UHGV virus genome: UHGV-0069511
Direction: 5' to 3' (one strand)
Source of the DNA: a virus
DNA length: 31,514 nucleotides
In this document: positions 1-29,147 of the stretch, piece by piece
Position numbering within the stretch: position 1 is the stretch's first letter
Layout: each line of letters begins with the position of its first letter
Program-made: the position numbers and the translations under genes
The notes under the pieces: model-generated
What the model was told of the DNA's origin: nothing
The model's input: the letters and a program-made list of their open reading frames with translations, nothing else
Database searches by the model: none

Positions 1-49
1 TCAAAAAAAAATAACGCCCTGCCATTTCAAGTAAAAATTACTAATATTT

Positions 50-1138
50 TCAGATAGTAGTGGCGTTAATTTTCTTCAGTTTTTTTTTATTTTTTCTTGC
101 AGGAAGTTTAGGCTTATATGCATTAACAAAAAGTTGATATGAATCCTGTAATGATAATCCGGGAAGGGTATCGTTTTTGGCACTAAATATTGAATAATAC
201 TTTTCGTATCGACTTATATCTTTTTCAAACACCCATGTCCATTCAGAATCATATAGTCTTTCCCCTCCTTTTTCCTTATTTTTGTTCTCAACTGTACGAT
301 TAATTATAAATTTGAAAACGGTATTATTCAAAGTTCTAATAAAATTCTCAACAATAAATGCGATTTGCTCGAGATCATCATTATTGAGTATTATCGGTTT
401 TTCTAAGTGCTTCATATGTTCAGCCAATCCTAGTCGGATTGCATTTTTCGAACCCAACTTACCAAATCGATGAACACAACAATGCCTTAACTCGCAAACT
501 TTCATGAATTCGCTTGAGCATTTCATCATTTCGATTGGTCGTTGTCCTTTCATTCCAATAATGTCCTTTAATGTTTCAAAAACATTATAAGGGCTTGCCA
601 ATGAAAAGTCCTCAAGTAAAGCTTCTGGTAATAACTCCTTTTTATGGTGTTGTGCCGCTGCATAACTAACGGCCTTATCAGAAACTATAGACTGTATATA
701 TTCATCATGATTAATTAGATTTCTGATAAGAGCTCGCAAATAACTTTCGGCTGCAGACACATAACCTAATAACAACAGATGGCTTAATGTGTTTGAAATA
801 TCACCAGATCTTAACAAGTGAAGTTGCTTTGTATTAGCTATAAAAAGATCTAACGGGGATTCCTTGCTATCAACAGGTAACTCATTAAATTTTTTGTGTG
901 TCTCAAACGAAAAAACTAGAGCTGGATTACTACATAGTTCAAAAAACTCTCTTCCATCTAAGTTATCATGGGTTGCAGTGACAACTGAGGACGCCACATT
1001 ATGATGAGTGGTCTCTTCATAATCCTCTTTTGATTCTAGTTCCATTTTCCCGACTCTTTTTAAATTAAACTTTTCAGATAAGAAAGACACGATTGACAAG
1101 TACATGCCATCAAAATTAAGACAAAAACTCTTCAACAT
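50..1138 (-). CDS. Hypothetical protein with HEPN-like R-x4-H motif (Abi-like); third gene of the cassette
   Basis: ORF-track frame 50..1171 begins with TTG; first in-frame ATG is at 1138 (overlaps the upstream gene stop by 23 nt), alternatives at 1105 and 1045. Motif 'ELRHCCVHRFG' fits the HEPN R-x4-H signature. No other catalytic motif recognised. Lys-rich C-terminus. Confidence 0.5.
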   Translation of the reverse strand: MLKSFCLNFDGMYLSIVSFLSEKFNLKRVGKMELESKEDYEETTHHNVASSVVTATHDNLDGREFFELCSNPALVFSFETHKKFNELPVDSKESPLDLFIANTKQLHLLRSGDISNTLSHLLLLGYVSAAESYLRALIRNLINHDEYIQSIVSDKAVSYAAAQHHKKELLPEALLEDFSLASPYNVFETLKDIIGMKGQRPIEMMKCSSEFMKVCELRHCCVHRFGKLGSKNAIRLGLAEHMKHLEKPIILNNDDLEQIAFIVENFIRTLNNTVFKFIINRTVENKNKEKGGERLYDSEWTWVFEKDISRYEKYYSIFSAKNDTLPGLSLQDSYQLFVNAYKPKLPARKNKKKLKKINATTI

Positions 1139-2822
1139 GTAATAACACTTTGTCCATAATTTTATTGGCAATTTTGGGTCCTATTCTGTGAATTTTTCTT
1201 AACTCACTCCCAGGGTCTTGTAAAGACAATACATCTCCTATAGTTTTTACTTTTTCCAGCCCAGATAGTTTTTGCATTTGCCAAGATGTTAGATGTGGTA
1301 CTTTTGACAGTGGAATAGACATGCACTGATTATAGGCCGACTCATCAATCAATTGATTCCCACAATGATGGCAAAATTTTTGATTGTCAGTCAATCGCGG
1401 AGTCTTGCAGTTATTGCATGGAGGTAAAGTTAGTTTAAGTCTCGCAAGTTGCTCAGCATTGAATAATGATGAAATGTTTCTTCTGACAGGATGCTTAGCA
1501 TTCTTTCTTAGTATTTTTTGAATAATCTGAGAAGGAGAAAAACCTCTACTTCCTTCGTTAAACACTCTTTCCTTTATTAATAAAGCATAATGAGGTATAT
1601 ATCTTTCATAAGTACGCCCATCACCATGAGAAATATCAGGAAGATTATAAAAAAGCCCTGTTTCAATTAATAGCTTAGTGAGTCGAGAAAAATAAACATT
1701 ATCATTTTTCTCTATACCGATTATGACTTGTTTCTCTTCTTTATATTGGGAGTTACTTTCCTTGAGTAATTCGACTACTTTTAATAAAAGTGATTCACCT
1801 AATGAAACAATGTCAAACAATCGAGGTAGCTTATCTTTTAGTGAACTGTATTCGCTGAGTCTAAGCTCAACATACCTTTCAATTATTTTATTAAATTTTT
1901 GCTGAGTTGTCTGACTTAAAGTTGTTTGATAATCTCTTAACATCATCAAAAAAGAACGTGGAATACCAAATGCTGAGAATTTAAATAACTCTTTCAAGTC
2001 ATCCGGAATGCCATCATACCCAGGAAACCTTGCCTGCGCTATAGCATCCATCACTGAGGAATAATTAGGGTGCTGTACCGAAATCCAAGCATCAATTGTT
2101 TCAGCATCATGAGCAACATGAAACCTTGGGCCATATTCGGTTGTTCCAGGATAAACCGATGCCTTTAAAGCTATTTTTGAGGTTTTTAGACTACGTACAA
2201 TATCAAAAAACTCGTAAAGATATTCAGGAGTTAAGCTTATTGCTGCATCGTCTAATAAAATAATGACTCTTTTACGTTCAAGCCAATCACATAGTGAACT
2301 CAACGAGGATATGACAGAAGAAACACTGATCAATTGAACAATGTTTTCTTGTTCTAATGATGGCGAAAGACCCTGCTCAAGCCTTACGATTAAATTAATT
2401 AGGAACTCTTTATCCGCTATGAGTATCGTTGACAAATCAAGATATTCAGAATCTTCAATATCGCAAGCAATTTCATAAGCAGAGAGTAGTATCTTTGCTA
2501 ATACCCATTTATGAAAGAGATCAATTGCATTTGGTTTATTTTTTAAAAGCGGCTCTAACTTAAAATATTTATTAAAAGAAACATAGAGTGGTAATGGTGC
2601 GTTATCATCGTTTTTACATTCAACCCAAGCATAACGCATCAAATGTGTTTTACCACATCCCCTAGGACCAACTATAAGTTTGATGCCTGGGGATATAAGA
2701 GCATTATGTATAATATCGAAAAACTCTCCAGATCTGATAGTATTATTTTTTATCGTATCCTCATCAATATAATCAGCTCGTTCCTCGATAAGAAAATTAC
2801 TATCTAATTCCACATCAGTCAT
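1116..2822 (-). CDS. P-loop NTPase with C-terminal zinc ribbon and helix-hairpin-helix
   Basis: ATG start at 2822 overlaps the methyltransferase stop by 8 nt. Walker A 'GPRGCGKT'; Walker B-like 'VIILLDDA'; C-terminal 'CNNCK...CHHCG' zinc ribbon followed by HhH-like 'IHRIGPKIANKI'. Confidence 0.7.
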   Translation of the reverse strand: MTDVELDSNFLIEERADYIDEDTIKNNTIRSGEFFDIIHNALISPGIKLIVGPRGCGKTHLMRYAWVECKNDDNAPLPLYVSFNKYFKLEPLLKNKPNAIDLFHKWVLAKILLSAYEIACDIEDSEYLDLSTILIADKEFLINLIVRLEQGLSPSLEQENIVQLISVSSVISSLSSLCDWLERKRVIILLDDAAISLTPEYLYEFFDIVRSLKTSKIALKASVYPGTTEYGPRFHVAHDAETIDAWISVQHPNYSSVMDAIAQARFPGYDGIPDDLKELFKFSAFGIPRSFLMMLRDYQTTLSQTTQQKFNKIIERYVELRLSEYSSLKDKLPRLFDIVSLGESLLLKVVELLKESNSQYKEEKQVIIGIEKNDNVYFSRLTKLLIETGLFYNLPDISHGDGRTYERYIPHYALLIKERVFNEGSRGFSPSQIIQKILRKNAKHPVRRNISSLFNAEQLARLKLTLPPCNNCKTPRLTDNQKFCHHCGNQLIDESAYNQCMSIPLSKVPHLTSWQMQKLSGLEKVKTIGDVLSLQDPGSELRKIHRIGPKIANKIMDKVLLHVEEFLS

Positions 2823-4023
2823 GTTTAATCCTTACAAGATGTATTTTTTTTAATGCATCCATTGTAATATGTTGTGCGGCTACACCACTACTCGCTCGAG
2901 ATAATTCCTCTTGCCCATCTTGAGAACAAAGAAAATCAAATAGTTTTTTCTTATCTCCACCAGAGGCTCGTATCAGAAAAATACAGTCACTGATATAAGA
3001 ATAGCCGCTCTCAACAAACAATATTTTTTTATGAAAATTTCGCCCAACTCTTGCTATTAATATATCACCAGGCTTAGCAATGACATCTAATTTTGATGGC
3101 TTCAATTCTTCTACAGAGTTGCAGTGGAATTTAATGTACTTTTCATCACCACTAAATTTTGTCGTATGAAAAACATGTTCCGTAATTTCCTTTGAATTAA
3201 ACCTACCTCTAAAAATTGAAATGTTTTTAAGCATCCCTATTGTGCTAAACCCTTTACCTTCATTTTTATTATAATGATAAGAGTAGTCCATTCTCTCAAC
3301 CGCATCTTCTTTTCTAATTAAAACAGGAGGCGACAATTCCCCATCTTTAGTTATACAATGTAATTGTATTTTATGATGAGGCATAATTTTTTTATTAAAA
3401 ATTAAAATATGTGTTTTAGCCTCTGTCCTTTTGAAGATATTCCTAGGCAATTCAATGACTTTTGTAATTGAATGTTCATTCAATAAATATCGTCTTAAAC
3501 CTATAAACTTTCTTGCTGTAAATATACCATCAGGTAAAATTATTCCAGCCTCACCGCCCTTTTTAAGAAACCTGATGACTTGAGATATAAATATTATCTC
3601 TGCTGGGACATATTTTGAGACAGATATATATTTATCTGCGCCAATCTCACTAATGATTTTAAAATAATCATCCCTCCATTCAGGGAGAGTGAATGGAGGA
3701 TTACATACTGCAACATCAAAATTTCCTTGATGTCGGGCAAGCATTTCAGGAAATGAATGAACAAGGGCATCTGTTACAATATGAGTAAGATTATCACATA
3801 CTTTTTTTGACATCCGAGATTCTATATCCAAAGAATATGCTTCTGCATTCTTCCATCGGTCTAAAGCAGCATAGGTTAAGCTCCCCTCACCAGAAGCTAA
3901 ATCAATAATATTATTGACTTTTTCAGCTTTCATCTGAGAAACCAATAATGCACTTATGGATTCTTTTGTATAGTATCTTCCGAGACTATCTCGTTGTGTG
4001 AATGGCATATAGTTACTGTTCAT
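2815..4023 (-). CDS. N6-adenine DNA methyltransferase (gamma-class) with HsdS-like target-recognition region
   Basis: ATG start at 4023. Motif X 'GRYYT', motif I 'IIDLASGEGSL', motif IV 'NPPF'; C-terminal 'GDILIARVG' resembles the conserved motif of type I specificity-subunit recognition domains. Confidence 0.8.
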   Translation of the reverse strand: MNSNYMPFTQRDSLGRYYTKESISALLVSQMKAEKVNNIIDLASGEGSLTYAALDRWKNAEAYSLDIESRMSKKVCDNLTHIVTDALVHSFPEMLARHQGNFDVAVCNPPFTLPEWRDDYFKIISEIGADKYISVSKYVPAEIIFISQVIRFLKKGGEAGIILPDGIFTARKFIGLRRYLLNEHSITKVIELPRNIFKRTEAKTHILIFNKKIMPHHKIQLHCITKDGELSPPVLIRKEDAVERMDYSYHYNKNEGKGFSTIGMLKNISIFRGRFNSKEITEHVFHTTKFSGDEKYIKFHCNSVEELKPSKLDVIAKPGDILIARVGRNFHKKILFVESGYSYISDCIFLIRASGGDKKKLFDFLCSQDGQEELSRASSGVAAQHITMDALKKIHLVRIKHD

Positions 4024-4264
4024 TTTTTATACTCATCTTAAGTACGCTACCGCCCTAGGCGTTACGGCTACCCAAGAACCAACACAATCATGTAATCTAT
4101 TGATATTTATAAACTTATCTTCAAATCTTTCAGCCCTAGAACCTAAAAAAGATAGAAGTGTAGGTAACAAAGGGCGATCGGATATAGGGCTAATGTTTAA
4201 ACTTAAGTATCAAAATATACGGTTTTAGGTCATTTTCCTAATCAATCCTATCATCACGTCAAAT

Positions 4265-5473
4265 CTACTTTGTAGCGTTCACCAGCAAAGAAATACATGA
4301 ATTATGATTAGCGTTTATATAGTCCGCATACCACTGCATCATCTCCCTACGTCCTTCCAAATACAACGCATGGTTATACGTCCCACGAATCGCATTTTTA
4401 TCAACGTGAGCCAGCTGGGTTTCAATCCACGCTGTATTGAAACCTTCCTCATGCAAAATCGTACTCATCGTGTGACGGAAACCATGCCCCGTTACCCTCC
4501 CCGTATATCCAATCCGCTTAAAAACCTGATTAATACTCGCTTCACTCATCGTCTTGCGGGGATCATTACGTCCCGGGAACACCAGTGGATATTGCCCTGA
4601 CATCACTTTGAGTTGCTGTACGATTTCCAGCGCTTGGGTAGAGAGGGGGACAAGGTGAGGCCGTTTCATCTTCATACGCTCGGCAGGTATCTCCCACACC
4701 GCTTTTTCAAGATCAAACTCACTCCAGAAAGCACCTCGGAGTTCGCCAGTGCGAACTCCCGTGAGGATCAGCAGACGTGCCGCAAGAACAACTAACGGGC
4801 TTCCTGTGTAGCCTGCGAGAGCTTTAAAAAAGTCTGGTAACTCCTCAACAGTAAGGAAGGGATAATGCTTCGATTCATGCCCTGACATCGCGCTGGTAAG
4901 ATCCGCTGCAGGATTGTATTCCGCACGACCGGTTACGATGGCGTAACGAAAGACTTCGCTGCAACGCTGGCGAACCTTCTTGGCCTTCTCTGTCGCGCCA
5001 CGGCTTTCAATTCGACGCAGCACATTAAGCAGAACCAGCGGTTTGATTTCATTCACCGGTTGTTGGCCAATATAGGGAAAAATATCTTTATTAAAGGCTT
5101 CGATAATGTCCGAGGCATAACCTTCTGACCATCGGCTCACCTTCGTTCCATGCCATTCAAGTGCCACAGCCTGAAACGTATTATTTAGCTGCACATCTCG
5201 AACCAGCTTTTCTTCTTTCTTGGCAAGCGATGGATCGATACCTTCGGCAAGCTTTTTCTTGGCGTCGTCACGCAGTGCCCTCGCTTGTGCAAGGGACACT
5301 GCCGGATAGACACCAAAGGCCATACGCTTCTCTTTTCCATTGAAGCGATATTTCATCCGCCAGTATCTGGAACCAGAGGGAACAACCTCAAGATACAAAC
5401 CAGCACCATCTGCCAGCTTATAGGCTTTCTCTCTGGGTTTAGCTGCGTCTACCTGTCGCGCATTAAGTTTCAT
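4265..5473 (-). CDS. int: Tyrosine recombinase/integrase, P4 (IntS/IntA) family
   Basis: ORF-track start at 5512 is GTG; ATG at 5473 gives N-terminus 'MKLNARQVDAAKP...YKLADGAGLYLEV' typical of P4-family integrases, with SD-like GGGAGA upstream. C-terminal catalytic region contains 'HGFRHT' and 'LAH...Y'. Confidence 0.9.
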   Translation of the reverse strand: MKLNARQVDAAKPREKAYKLADGAGLYLEVVPSGSRYWRMKYRFNGKEKRMAFGVYPAVSLAQARALRDDAKKKLAEGIDPSLAKKEEKLVRDVQLNNTFQAVALEWHGTKVSRWSEGYASDIIEAFNKDIFPYIGQQPVNEIKPLVLLNVLRRIESRGATEKAKKVRQRCSEVFRYAIVTGRAEYNPAADLTSAMSGHESKHYPFLTVEELPDFFKALAGYTGSPLVVLAARLLILTGVRTGELRGAFWSEFDLEKAVWEIPAERMKMKRPHLVPLSTQALEIVQQLKVMSGQYPLVFPGRNDPRKTMSEASINQVFKRIGYTGRVTGHGFRHTMSTILHEEGFNTAWIETQLAHVDKNAIRGTYNHALYLEGRREMMQWYADYINANHNSCISLLVNATK

Positions 5474-5636
5474 TGGGGGCATCTCCCTAGACCGAACACA
5501 AAATGCCCCCACTTATGCCCCCAACTGCGACTTGATTTCGGTTGAGTCTAGTTGATAACAGGAGATAAGATACGGGCCAGAAACCGCAGTATACGAGCTT
5601 TTAGTTGATTTCGGTAGACTTGGGAAGAGTTTGAAA

Positions 5637-5682
5637 TGGTGCCGATAATAGGAGTCGAACCTACGACCTTCGCATTACGAAT
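5637..5682 (-). other. att core: 3' fragment of tRNA-Thr(CGU) (anticodon loop to CCA end); not a complete tRNA
   Basis: Reverse complement reads 'ATTCGTAATGCGAAGGTCGTAGGTTCGACTCCTATTATCGGCACCA', matching the 3' part of E. coli thrW as I recall it. Sequence further 5' lacks the complementary acceptor strand (GCCGATA) and D-arm, so the tRNA is truncated. Confidence 0.7.
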
Positions 5683-5843: not shown

Positions 5844-5877
5844 CACAAAGCCTTGCAATCCAGTGCAAAGCTTTGTG
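5844..5877. repeat. Imperfect hairpin downstream of tailspike gene (possible end-of-late-operon terminator)
   Basis: 'CACAAAGC' (5844-5851) pairs with 'GCTTTGTG' (5870-5877), with an inner TTGCA/TGCAA pair; U-rich stretch follows on plus strand only after about 9 nt. Strand and function are uncertain. Confidence 0.3.
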
Positions 5878-5966: not shown

Positions 5967-8045
5967 TTACTTATTAACCCAACCTGTAGCATTTGTGTTG
6001 CTTTCCTTTATATAAAGTACTGTATTTCCACCTCCATCAGAACGAGTGTAAATAGAACCAACTGGTGCTCCAACTCCGCTAGATGTTGGGTTGCCTTCTT
6101 GCCCAAATATCACAAGTGAGCTTTTATCTGTAGCTTGATTATTCTGTGTGGCTGATGTTCCAAATGAAACATTCCCTATAAATGACACGCTCTTACAGCT
6201 TGATGTAGCAAATATACCAACTGATGGTTTATTATTTGCAACGCCATCACGAATTTGATTTGAACTAACAATTACATTTTCTGCACCAGAGTCAATTCGT
6301 ATGCCATTATGGTTATTATCTGCGGTAGAAACCCCAACTATAATGTTTGATTGAATAGTAACATTTGAATATTTACCATTAATATGAATCCCATGCAGGG
6401 AAATATTTCTAAAGATGTTGCTAGAAATTACAACATCATGCGAAAAACCAGACCCTATAAATTCTTCTGCATTAGTTTCAGAAATCCATAAAGAACTTGA
6501 TGTTCCTGAATCGTATTCATTATTAGAGATGATTGATTTGTTAATAAAATCACCTTTGAAAAAACCGATTCCGCCTCTTGCTGTGTTTCCAGTGACAGTT
6601 AGTCCTGAAACCCATCTTGCGTCTACTGCATATGATTGAGACTCTGTAATAAAAATGGAATTGTTGGATATTACGATATCTTCATGAAATGCATCTGATG
6701 TATCTGTATATGGATATGTAGGTGCAGCCAGAAGAATCGGGGATCTAACGCCTTCAAAATAATTGCCAACAATGCGCCCCCTCCTTGCCCCCTGTGGTTT
6801 TGATGATGATGGGAATGGGGTTACATGAACTCCTCGCGCGGTACTGTTATAGAAAGAGCATCCGCTAACCACCCAATCATACCAGTTGAAAACCCTTACC
6901 CCGGCAAAGAGCATTCCATCGAACCTGCAGTTTATGACCCTTATATTTTTGTCCTGATTCCCATATGAATTAGCATGGTTCCCAACCCCCACCCCCCACG
7001 CCCCAAACCCAGTGGTGGTATTTTGTGGATTTGAACCAAAATAACAGTTATCAACAAGAACATTGATGTTTGGGTAATAATCGCCAAGAGATTCAATCCC
7101 CGGATCTAACTGGATCGCTTCTGAATAATTTCGGTTGGAAAGTGGTTTGAAGCCAAGAAACTTACAGTCTCTTATAATCACCCCTTGCCCGTCAGCAATA
7201 TCTACAGCATGAAAATCGACTACATCAAGAAATGTTACTCCAACAATAGAAAGATTTCTTGGTGAGGAGGCTGCAATGATGTCAAAAGGATCTGTAGGGT
7301 GGTCTTGTCCTCCTCCATCTAGTATTCCGCCTGTTATTTTAATGTTAGTGCCAGTATTAGGGCTTATTCTCAGCATGACGTCATTAGAAAAATTACGTTT
7401 AATGGTTACGCCATCAGTCATCTTTAGGTGAGTATTTGATTTTATTTGCAACTCAGAAAGCAAAGTATATATGCCTGGTAGTGAAAACTGTAGTGTACCT
7501 CCTCCAATGCTATATATTGCATCTAGCGCAAATTGCAGAGCTACTTTATTGTCAGCATTCGATGGATGAGCACCGAAGTCAAGAACATCAATGATTTGTT
7601 GGTTCTTTTGGTGTTGAGTTTGATTTGCTGCTCCGGGGAATGGTTGTTTCACCGACACTAATTCATCCCCATCACCATCATCAAAGGATGCCAACCTCTT
7701 CTGAAACTGATCAGGGTCATACTTCAGCACATTAGGAAAATAAAACTGCTGCGCACCATACGCATCATAAACCGCCATAGAATGGCCTTGCACAGTTACG
7801 AACTTGGCAATCTGTCCGTTATATACAGGGTAACCAGCAGCGTTAATGATGATTGGTTGAGAAACAGGAACGTGAGAACCATCTTCGTTCTCAACATAGA
7901 CCTGAATCTGGTTTTCAGGATTTACCGGGTCAGTGTCAATTTTACCGATATAAATTTTGCCATTGGCTACGGCTTTAAAAGAACGAGCCATAGTGAAGAG
8001 TTGCGAAGGCATACTCACTACAACATTGGCTGTAATGTCTGTCAT
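5967..8045 (-). CDS. Tailspike protein (P22 gp9-like N-terminal head-binding domain, divergent beta-helix receptor-binding domain)
   Basis: N-terminus '[43 protein letters not shown]...VLKYDPDQF' is the conserved P22/Sf6 tailspike head-binding domain; remainder is Gly/Asn/Ser-rich with beta-helix-like repeats. Confidence 0.9.
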
Positions 8046-8100: not shown

Positions 8101-8128
8101 CATAAAAAAACCCAGCCGAAGCTGGGTC
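8101..8128 (-). terminator. Rho-independent terminator between ant and tailspike
   Basis: Minus-strand transcript 'ACCCAGC-UUCG-GCUGGGU' followed by UUUUUUUAUG (plus-strand A-run 8104-8110, stem 8111-8126). Confidence 0.65.
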
Positions 8129-8145: not shown

Positions 8146-9069
8146 TCAGTAGTTATGTACTGAAGGAGGTAATTCTTTGTTCTTAAGTCTTATCCATGCT
8201 GAAAGGTTTGTTGGTCCGTCTGGCTCATTAATATCAACATCTCGTGTATGGTTGATTAAAACATCTCTCGCCATATCGATAATACGGGAGAACTCATAAC
8301 CGCAGTCATGACATCTGCCGGAATAGTTCGATTGAATTTGTTTTAGCGCCGGATACAATTCGCGGAATAATGCCTGTGAGCGGTTGGCATAATCCCATAG
8401 CCATACAAGGCTGTTTGCTTCTTTTGCAGAAAGCTCGTTGGTTTTCTTCTCTTGTTTGCCAATGAACTCACCTTCAAGCGGAACTCGAGCTGCAAGTGAC
8501 AGTGCTTCGGTAAACTGCTCCTCACTGATTTCTTTGTATGAACATCCAAAATGGGATTTCAGTGACGACCACATGGTGATCATCGCCTTAGCCTGTTTTT
8601 CCTTTGGCAGAGACTGACCGCGACTCATGACGAGTTGTTTAATGGCTTCCTGCTGTTCAGTGGTGATTTTACCCGGCAACGCCTTTTTAGCTTTGCGTGG
8701 GTTAACTACATGACCTTTAGTCCAGTACTCGTATAGCACATCGTCACACTCTTCCTGATACTGGATTACCTTGTCGCGGATTTCAGGACGGACTTTGTTT
8801 GGCTGAATGCTTGAAAGCCAAGCCGCAAACTTACGAAAGGCAAGGCATATCATTAACTGTTTACCGCCAGCAGAAGGTATTTCGATTTCCGAAATACCTT
8901 TGACAAATCTCTGTTTTAATTTAACAAATTGAGCAGCCCAAACCATACCCATGCCTTCTACAACGGGTTTCATAGGAACGTAAGGTTCATTGTTAATGCT
9001 GACCAAAAAGAGATTTGTTCCGTGGAATGGAACGTTGATTGTATGTTCTGCAATTGCTACACTCGTCAT
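8146..9069 (-). CDS. ant: Antirepressor Ant
   Basis: 307 aa, position downstream of arc in immI; N-terminus resembles phage antirepressor family proteins. Confidence 0.8.
   Translation of the reverse strand: MTSVAIAEHTINVPFHGTNLFLVSINNEPYVPMKPVVEGMGMVWAAQFVKLKQRFVKGISEIEIPSAGGKQLMICLAFRKFAAWLSSIQPNKVRPEIRDKVIQYQEECDDVLYEYWTKGHVVNPRKAKKALPGKITTEQQEAIKQLVMSRGQSLPKEKQAKAMITMWSSLKSHFGCSYKEISEEQFTEALSLAARVPLEGEFIGKQEKKTNELSAKEANSLVWLWDYANRSQALFRELYPALKQIQSNYSGRCHDCGYEFSRIIDMARDVLINHTRDVDINEPDGPTNLSAWIRLKNKELPPSVHNY
9035..9063 (+). promoter_or_regulatory. Candidate Psar promoter inside the 5' end of ant
   Basis: -35 'TTGATT' (9035-9040), 17-nt spacer, -10 'TACACT' (9058-9063) on the plus strand, antisense to ant. 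Confidence 0.4.
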
Positions 9070-9143
9070 GTCGTTAATTCCTATGCGTGGTTTTACGATA
9101 CCGAAGCCCTGACTGTTACCGCAGTTGGGGCTTCACTGTTTTT
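9068..9143 (+). ncRNA. sar: sar-like antisense RNA covering the ant translation start
   Basis: Predicted start just downstream of the -10 element; plus-strand hairpin GAAGCCC(9103-9109)/GGGCTTC(9128-9134) followed by 'CTGTTTTTG'. Length of about 75 nt is in line with the 68-69 nt P22 sar RNA. Ends are approximate. Confidence 0.4.
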
Positions 9144-9354
9144 GTAAGTCACTGTAGTTATAAAACCACTGACCACTCATTCTTGCTTTGATTGACTCTA
9201 CTGAATCACGGCAAGGAATGATTCCACCTGACATCATTCTGATCTCCGTAAATTCACCGCTCCTTACCGACTCAATGCCATTAACGTTAACTAAAGATTT
9301 ACCTCTACCAAGTGCATTCTCATAGCCAATCTCATCAACCTCAATAAACCTCAT
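9133..9354 (-). CDS. Hypothetical 73-aa protein inserted between arc and ant
   Basis: ATG at 9354 overlaps the arc stop as ATGA; SD-like GAGG upstream. No recognisable motif. P22 has no gene here as far as I recall. Confidence 0.4.
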   Translation of the reverse strand: MRFIEVDEIGYENALGRGKSLVNVNGIESVRSGEFTEIRMMSGGIIPCRDSVESIKARMSGQWFYNYSDLQKQ

Positions 9355-28991: not shown

Positions 28992-29067
28992 TGGTGCTGG
29001 TTAACGGACTTGAACCGCTACCCATTCGCTTACAAGGCGACTGCTCTACCATTGGAGCTAAACCAGC
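28992..29067 (-). tRNA. tRNA-Thr (anticodon UGU)
   Basis: Manual fold of the reverse complement: 7-bp acceptor stem GCTGGTT/AACCAGC, D-arm GCTC/GAGC, anticodon loop CTTGTAA, T-loop TTCAAGT, encoded CCA end. Confidence 0.6.
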
Positions 29068-29072
29068 ATATT

Positions 29073-29147
29073 TGGCGGGACAGCGTGGACTCGAACCACG
29101 ATAAGAAGGTTAACAGCCTTCCGTAATGACCTTTATACGACTGACCC
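29073..29147 (-). tRNA. tRNA-Asn (anticodon GUU), slightly aberrant
   Basis: Manual fold: perfect anticodon stem GAAGG/CCTTC with loop CTGTTAA, T-arm CGTGG-TTCGAGT-CCACG, CCA end; one acceptor-stem mismatch and a 3-bp D-stem. Confidence 0.45.

Follow-up and report, generated by a model that had tools for sequence, protein, structure and literature searches.

The tailspike of a P22-like prophage integrated at thrW joins a conserved head-binding domain to an exchangeable beta-helix cassette that most likely recognizes, and probably depolymerizes, the K2 group 2 capsule of Escherichia coli. The gene is intact, begins with ATG, encodes 692 amino acids and lies at 5967..8045 on the minus strand of the window, by which we mean the whole 31,514-nucleotide stretch of UHGV virus genome UHGV-0069511 that was analyzed. 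K2 is probably the receptor, going by genomic co-occurrence of the cassette with the capsule locus, and we infer that the module is an enzyme. In the mechanism that we propose, the N-terminal ~115 residues would dock the spike onto the tail hub, and the right-handed beta-helix cassette that follows the YDPDQF hinge would recognize, and probably depolymerize, K2, a teichoic-acid-like poly(galactosyl-glycerol-phosphate). With the capsule depolymerized, the short tail would be able to reach the outer membrane. In its action the spike would resemble that of CUS-3, which is specific for K1, and differ from those of P22, Sf6 and HK620, which are O-antigen endoglycosidases.

Domain architecture and relatives of the tailspike

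The open reading frame matches both the Head_binding and the Beta_helix families of Pfam. Residues 1-113 align to positions 1-113 of the 113-position Head_binding profile (PF09008, E=1.5e-67), and Beta_helix (PF13229) matches residues 457-598. In a search of all PDB sequences, the alignment to P22 gp9 chains was limited to residues 1-115, and the Sf6 gp14 alignment extended over residues 1-186; its first 115 residues differ at 9 positions (~92% identity), and similarity beyond them is weak. DNA homology to HK620, Sf6, CUS-3 and many E. coli prophages begins at ~7701-7707, which corresponds to residue ~115 and the YDPDQF hinge. The Pfam profile, the Sf6 gp14 and P22 gp9 alignments and the DNA homology place the coding region of the head-binding (tail-attachment) domain, residues 1-115, at 7701..8045 (minus strand). 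The coding region of the receptor-binding beta-helix module, residues 116-692, a putative K2 capsule depolymerase, occupies 5967..7700 on the same strand. These boundaries agree to within a few residues with an earlier note made from the sequence alone, which had assigned the first 110 or so residues to the P22/Sf6 head-binding domain and the remaining 580 to a different beta-helix module. That note had also proposed structure prediction as a check, and in an AlphaFold2 monomer model built with 23 homologues, residues ~150-692 form a right-handed beta-helix that is predicted with confidence (pLDDT mostly >90). The N-terminal domain was poorly modeled because few of the aligned sequences include it.

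By its N-terminal domain, its fold and the position of its gene, the protein belongs to the P22-like tailspike family: it has PF09008 at the N-terminus and a right-handed parallel beta-helix body after the hinge, and it is encoded by the last gene of the virion block, after ant, arc and mnt and beside the attachment site. Copies that are 99% identical are named “phage tailspike protein” in RefSeq, and the exact protein is present on 12 public contigs. The head-binding domain, the hinge and the overall beta-helix spike plan are common to Sf6 gp14, P22 gp9 and HK620 gp9, whose genes likewise follow ant/immI, at the end of the late operon nearest to att. Past residue ~115, however, the module is unrelated in sequence to these three, and its carriage tracks capsule type and not O type, which by sequence and host association places the tailspike outside the group of P22, Sf6 and HK620 O-antigen endoglycosidases. 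The closest functional analogue is CUS-3, a P22-like temperate phage in which a capsule-directed module is likewise mounted on the head-binding domain. Its virion genes and spike N-terminus are common to the prophage, whereas its endosialidase has no sequence similarity to the module and targets K1 where K2 is predicted here.

Comparison of the C-terminal 580 residues with the characterized tailspikes of P22, Sf6, HK620 and CUS-3, which the note had suggested, yielded no close relative of the module; in PDB and phage searches only the N-terminus was common to these proteins and the tailspike. The HK620 spike matches residues 1-297, at 47% overall. The same searches gave no homology of the module to any spike of known O-antigen specificity, and none was found to a characterized capsule depolymerase (endosialidase, K5 lyase). 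The best phage matches of residues 113/116-692, at 46-49% identity, are tail spikes of Vectrevirus (LL11, 6948, 101101UKE1, vKMB47 and others) and of vB_Eco_K-01. The note held that identity to a characterized tailspike of known specificity would make the domain swap unremarkable, and the best match is instead this 46-49% identity to Vectrevirus second spikes, themselves without characterization. Homology to the second spikes (vKMB47, vB_EcoP-101101UKE1, LL11, 6948 and others) covers the whole beta-helix module (E ~1e-160) at ~47% identity and includes the same invariant motif and C-terminal tail. The second spikes differ in their N-terminal attachment domain and in being carried on a lytic T7-like chassis; the Vectrevirus-type attachment module is absent from the tailspike, which has the P22 head-binding domain in its place, and the relatives have PF18668 or short N-termini.

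The next phage matches are spikes of Bacillus subtilis SPO1-like phages, at 27-30% identity. A large protein collection returned one 90% cluster of 336 E. coli sequences under the source name “hypothetical protein”, together with metagenomic relatives and a Rahnella protein that is 59% identical and likewise has the head-binding domain. Beyond P22 and Sf6, the PDB sequence search gave only weak matches of the tailspike body to PfbA, an adhesin of Streptococcus pneumoniae that was also the best solved structure by fold search (PDB 3zpp, 4mr0); the fold searches returned generic beta-helix matches only. PfbA is a cell-wall-anchored bacterial adhesin and not a phage protein, matches only ~370 residues of the module and has no known depolymerase activity. 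The best PHROG family is labeled “tail spike protein with colanic acid degradation activity” (E=7e-117, with much of the score coming from the N-terminal domain).

In an alignment spanning 25-63% identity and including a Bacillus phage spike, H279, D282, C294, F296, G298, F299, R305 and E309 are invariant, as are I311-P315, C334, G355-H357, G382, W388, F398 and an asparagine ladder. The conserved block of H279, D282, R305, E309, Q312, D314, N356 and H357 is the probable active site. K2 has no uronic acid, and a lyase is therefore unlikely; the putative depolymerase would be a glycosidase or a phosphodiesterase. K2, a poly(glycosylpolyol phosphate) polymer, is synthesized by a TagF-like polymerase and is similar to type II wall teichoic acid (PMC5974469). 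This similarity accords loosely with the presence of distant homologues in phages that infect Bacillus, a bearer of teichoic acid. A bolder idea, which we hold only tentatively and consider doubtful, is that the module could be the founding member of a beta-helix family whose depolymerase activity is directed at teichoic-acid-like poly(glycosyl-polyol-phosphate) polymers. Such a family, with members among Bacillus phage spikes facing wall teichoic acid, PfbA and K2-degrading coliphage spikes, would use the invariant His/Asp/Arg/Glu block, and the module might cleave a phosphodiester and not a glycosidic bond. To our knowledge, phosphodiester cleavage has not been described for tailspikes of Gram-negative phages.

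The C-terminal tail of the tailspike, residues ~650-692 (5967-6095), has the consensus GAPVGSxYTRxDGxxxTxLYVKESGTxxxGWVAK and is kept in relatives down to ~30% identity, but is absent from the spike of Bacillus phage Adastra; it may be an assembly or trimerization element. AVS wastewater ST131 strains have an ISEc52 element between the tailspike and ant genes, and the annotation of strain A1.S1.18 splits the tailspike into two open reading frames, which suggests a frameshift.

Carriage of the module and the K2 capsule locus

To test the O-antigen proposal of the earlier note, we surveyed 5,426 complete E. coli genomes, with carriers defined by ≥99% nucleotide identity to the module. This yielded 24 carriers (99.1-99.9% identity), which are mostly clonally related ST131 and represent about five or six independent events, not 24. 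The K2 marker was 1.5 kb of the region-2 gene annotated “CDP-glycerol glycerophosphotransferase family” in the group 2 capsule (kps) locus of ST131 strain 4433. The K2 type strain CFT073 has its three region-2 proteins under the same RefSeq accession numbers as strain 4433, and the marker therefore denotes the K2 locus. The O25 marker was the wzx gene from an O25b:H4-ST131 genome.

The K2 marker is present in 141 of the 5,426 genomes and in every one of the 24 module carriers, both non-O25 carriers included, while none of the 5,285 marker-negative genomes carries the module. The O25 wzx gene is found in 22/24 carriers vs 460/5,426 genomes overall. When both markers are considered, the module is carried by 22/74 genomes with O25 and K2, 0/386 with O25 without K2, 2/67 with K2 but not O25, and 0/~4,899 with neither. 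Fisher tests of the K2 marker against carriage, whose p-values ignore clonal relatedness, gave p=1.8e-19 within O25 and p=1.8e-4 within non-O25. Spike type follows the capsule (K) type of the host in these genomes, as in capsule-specific tailspike depolymerases of the CUS-3, K1F and K1-5 type, and does not follow its O serogroup. Within K2-marker genomes the module is commoner in O25 than in non-O25 (p=1e-5), which is most simply explained by inheritance within ST131, though it leaves room for an O-antigen role.

For the two non-O25 carriers, O types were read from the rfb annotation: strain 317 is O6, and strain 755 has a different O cluster in which the rml genes are absent and wzx is cut by IS1. 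The cluster of strain 755 contains a truncated flippase gene beside the IS1 and a short polymerase gene, and this strain may be without a complete O antigen. A first reading of O25b as the receptor, taken from the 22 O25 carriers, was dropped after typing of these two exceptions and the capsule-marker test. The same results bear on two statements of the earlier note. It had proposed that the domain swap sets O-antigen specificity, a view not borne out by carriage that follows the K2 locus better (24/24) than O25 (22/24). Its prediction that the module reveals the O serotype of the host is not supported by the O25 genomes that have no K2 marker, none of which carries the module, nor by the presence of one module allele in both O6 and O25b hosts. 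Since carriage tracks the K2 marker and an allele is common to O6 and O25b strains, the likely receptor is the K2 capsule.

Lytic phages add a further line of evidence. Vectrevirus vKMB47, which forms clear plaques with halos, has two spikes, the first of which resembles the K5 lyase of K1-5 (PMC11162368), and its second spike is 48% identical to the module. The host given in the vKMB47 record is CFT073, which is K2 and not K5, and the second spike is therefore the natural candidate for K2 recognition. The genus also includes K1E, which infects K1-capsulated hosts (10.1101/2024.01.12.575291), and K1 is the sole context in which the Gaborieau preprint refers to Vectrevirus; the Vectrevirus homologues, at 46-49% identity, need not have the same specificity as the module. 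A K2 capsule for the window's own host is a prediction that could fail, as only 8 of the 147 complete genomes with the same thrW island as the window are positive for the K2 marker.

The association with K2 could in principle be secondary to another receptor. The module might be an O-antigen endoglycosidase targeting O25/O25b, with a K2-bearing ST131 sublineage having inherited the prophage, and in its favor are the excess of O25 among carriers, both overall and within K2-marker genomes, the O-antigen activity of the characterized P22, Sf6 and HK620 spikes and the report that prophage spikes of the genus Lederbergvirus usually match the O type of their host (PMC10408124). We nevertheless consider it quite unlikely, as O25 genomes that have no K2 marker are devoid of the module, the carriers include an O6 strain and one with a different, IS1-disrupted O cluster, an identical allele occurs in O6 and O25b hosts, and two separate ST131 insertions (beside dacD and at argW) are both found in K2-marker genomes. 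Some other receptor, such as colanic acid, the LPS core or another glycan, would make the K2 link a matter of hitch-hiking in phylogroup B2 ExPEC clones. The colanic acid label of the best PHROG family points this way, notwithstanding the share of its score that comes from the N-terminal domain, as do the small number and phylogenetic clustering of the carriers and the occurrence of the window's thrW island mostly in genomes without the K2 marker. This explanation is unlikely in our judgment: both non-O25 carriers are positive for the K2 marker though only 67/4,966 non-O25 genomes are (p=1.8e-4), colanic acid and core types are too widespread to account for the lack of carriers among the 5,285 genomes without the marker, and a lytic phage with a homologous spike was propagated on the K2 type strain (PMC11162368).

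It is also conceivable, though highly improbable, that the module binds K2 or another glycan without cleaving it, as a lectin-like adhesin spike resembling PfbA. Short-tailed phages on capsulated hosts generally must depolymerize the capsule, and the eight polar residues of the conserved block are invariant down to 25% identity, Bacillus phage spikes included, a degree of invariance that is more usual for active sites than for binding surfaces. The haloed plaques of the Vectrevirus relative also argue against binding alone (PMC11162368).

If recognition and depolymerization of K2 by the module are correct, this would be the candidate first K2 capsule depolymerase. The reference uropathogen CFT073 has a K2 capsule, as does a sizeable share of pandemic ST131, with the K2 marker in 74 of the 460 O25 genomes. 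A published list of E. coli K-specific phage depolymerases is without K2 (PMC12488582), and our literature search found no K2-specific phage spike; it likewise found no usable account of an O25b- or ST131-specific prophage tailspike, nor of phages LL11, 6948 and 6949. The gene would then be a ready-made K2 depolymerase for capsule typing, anti-virulence use and retargeting of therapeutic phages, and spike typing of E. coli P22-like prophages would in some instances indicate the K type instead of the O type. The modular exchange of spikes is already established, as are P22-like phages with capsule specificity, and the K2 assignment is new as far as the literature search shows. The principle itself would not surprise a specialist, but a candidate K2 depolymerase is practically useful and directly testable.

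Exchange of the cassette among prophage backbones

The module is located in P22-like prophages at no fewer than four chromosomal sites. The thrW site is occupied in the window and in two metagenome contigs. A site adjacent to dacD is assigned to 20 carriers, at least one of them named ST131, by sequence identity to strain 4433, the sole carrier in which this site was read. The argW site, next to intS, was read in ST131 strain 4993 and in strain 755, whose allele MB1159 also carries, and strain 317 has its prophage adjacent to ybhB-bioA. At none of these sites (thrW, dacD, argW and ybhB-bioA) is the module prophage physically linked to kps.

Across these backbones the module retains 99.2-99.9% nucleotide identity vs 92.8-96.7% in the adjoining head-binding segment, a contrast characteristic of a cassette that has been exchanged recently. 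The immI and accessory regions vary between carriers. Two alleles of the module exist, seven amino acids apart, and allele B, with its seven substitutions, is identical in O6 strain 317 and O25b strain 4993. On the K2 reading, one receptor-binding module, which also has homologues in lytic podoviruses, would recently have moved between four or more prophage backbones.

In the argW carriers 755 and 4993, argW is followed by intS, and the oppositely oriented tailspike gene comes only 145 bp after intS. Integrase and spike genes are neighbors in the Sf6 prophage as well, but Sf6 has oac in the slot that is empty in these two carriers.

Prophage surroundings and the thrW attachment site

The window contains the late half of a mosaic P22-like (Lederbergvirus) prophage, the early half of which falls outside it. 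From the tailspike gene, the order is ant, sar RNA, arc, mnt, three plus-strand accessory genes, gp16, gp20, gp7, a needle gene with a Sf6-type knob, gp10, an HNH endonuclease gene, gp4, coat, scaffold, portal, terminase, lysis genes, two tRNAs and Q. The best phage matches of the prophage are vB_EcoP-611R6, HK620 and Sf6, with ~95% identity over 38-52% of the query, and the exact prophage was not found in any complete E. coli genome of the collection. The immediate upstream neighbor of the tailspike gene is the antirepressor gene ant of the immI region (8146..9069, minus strand; Pfam P22_AR_N and P22_AR_C). Between the two genes, at 8109..8128 (minus strand), is a terminator-like hairpin with an 8-bp GC-rich stem followed by a T run. 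A second terminator-like hairpin with a 14-bp stem lies 90 nt past the tailspike stop codon (5844..5877, minus strand), within a downstream stretch of 125-132 bp that is kept in other carriers.

The right end of the prophage is marked by a 46-nt 3' fragment of the tRNA-Thr gene thrW at 5637..5682 (minus strand), read from the sequence as the attR core; ARAGORN found no complete tRNA at this fragment. Prophage-free E. coli genomes align to positions 1-5682 of the window, with identities reaching 100%, and have an intact tRNA-Thr where the match stops; positions 1-5636 are therefore a separate thrW island. The stop codon of the tailspike gene is 284 bp from the thrW fragment, and the longest open reading frames wholly inside this gap are ≤43 amino acids on either strand. 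Acyltransferase, GtrA, Gtr and glycosyltransferase domains gave no Pfam match among the window open reading frames that were scanned. The earlier note's remark that no gtr or oac genes follow the tailspike is accordingly right for the canonical slot, where the gap has no credible open reading frame. If the receptor is a capsule, however, gtr and oac are the wrong genes to look for in judging whether the receptor is modified. CUS-3 carries the capsule O-acetyltransferase gene neuO after its spike gene, and that slot is empty in the prophage.

Several smaller features of the prophage were recorded. The sar RNA (9071-9137, plus strand; Rfam 77.7 bits) is antisense at the start of ant, and the immI region is therefore of the P22 type. 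The arc-like open reading frame at 9351-9572 is called as 52 amino acids on other contigs, and its start codon is hence uncertain here. The three co-oriented accessory genes (9904-11712, plus strand) lie between mnt and gp16, where P22 has sieA, and encode a 239-residue protein (phrog_19868), a PIN-domain protein with a start codon overlapping the stop of the gene before it, and a 161-residue protein. They gave no PADLOC match, are kept in the ST131 dacD-site prophage and are replaced in other carriers by SieA or a P63C protein; they may be an unrecognized exclusion or defense module. The HNH/NUMOD4 gene (18714-19298, minus strand), probably a homing endonuclease gene, is inserted between the tail-accessory genes gp10 and gp4. 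Genes for tRNA-Thr (TGT) and tRNA-Asn (GTT) at 28992-29147 (minus strand) lie between the lysis genes and the Q antiterminator gene.

Finally, the thrW island contains a P4-type integrase gene (4265-5512), a Type II N6-adenine methyltransferase gene (2815-4023; PADLOC MTase_II, E=8e-237), a gene for an ORC/CDC6-like AAA ATPase (1116-2822) and one for a 373-residue protein without assignment (50-1171). The integrase was considered as the prophage's own and rejected, since prophage-free genomes have the same integrase island right after an intact thrW. The same island was found in E. coli HS, and in one metagenome contig it runs on into BrxA, BrxB and BrxC.
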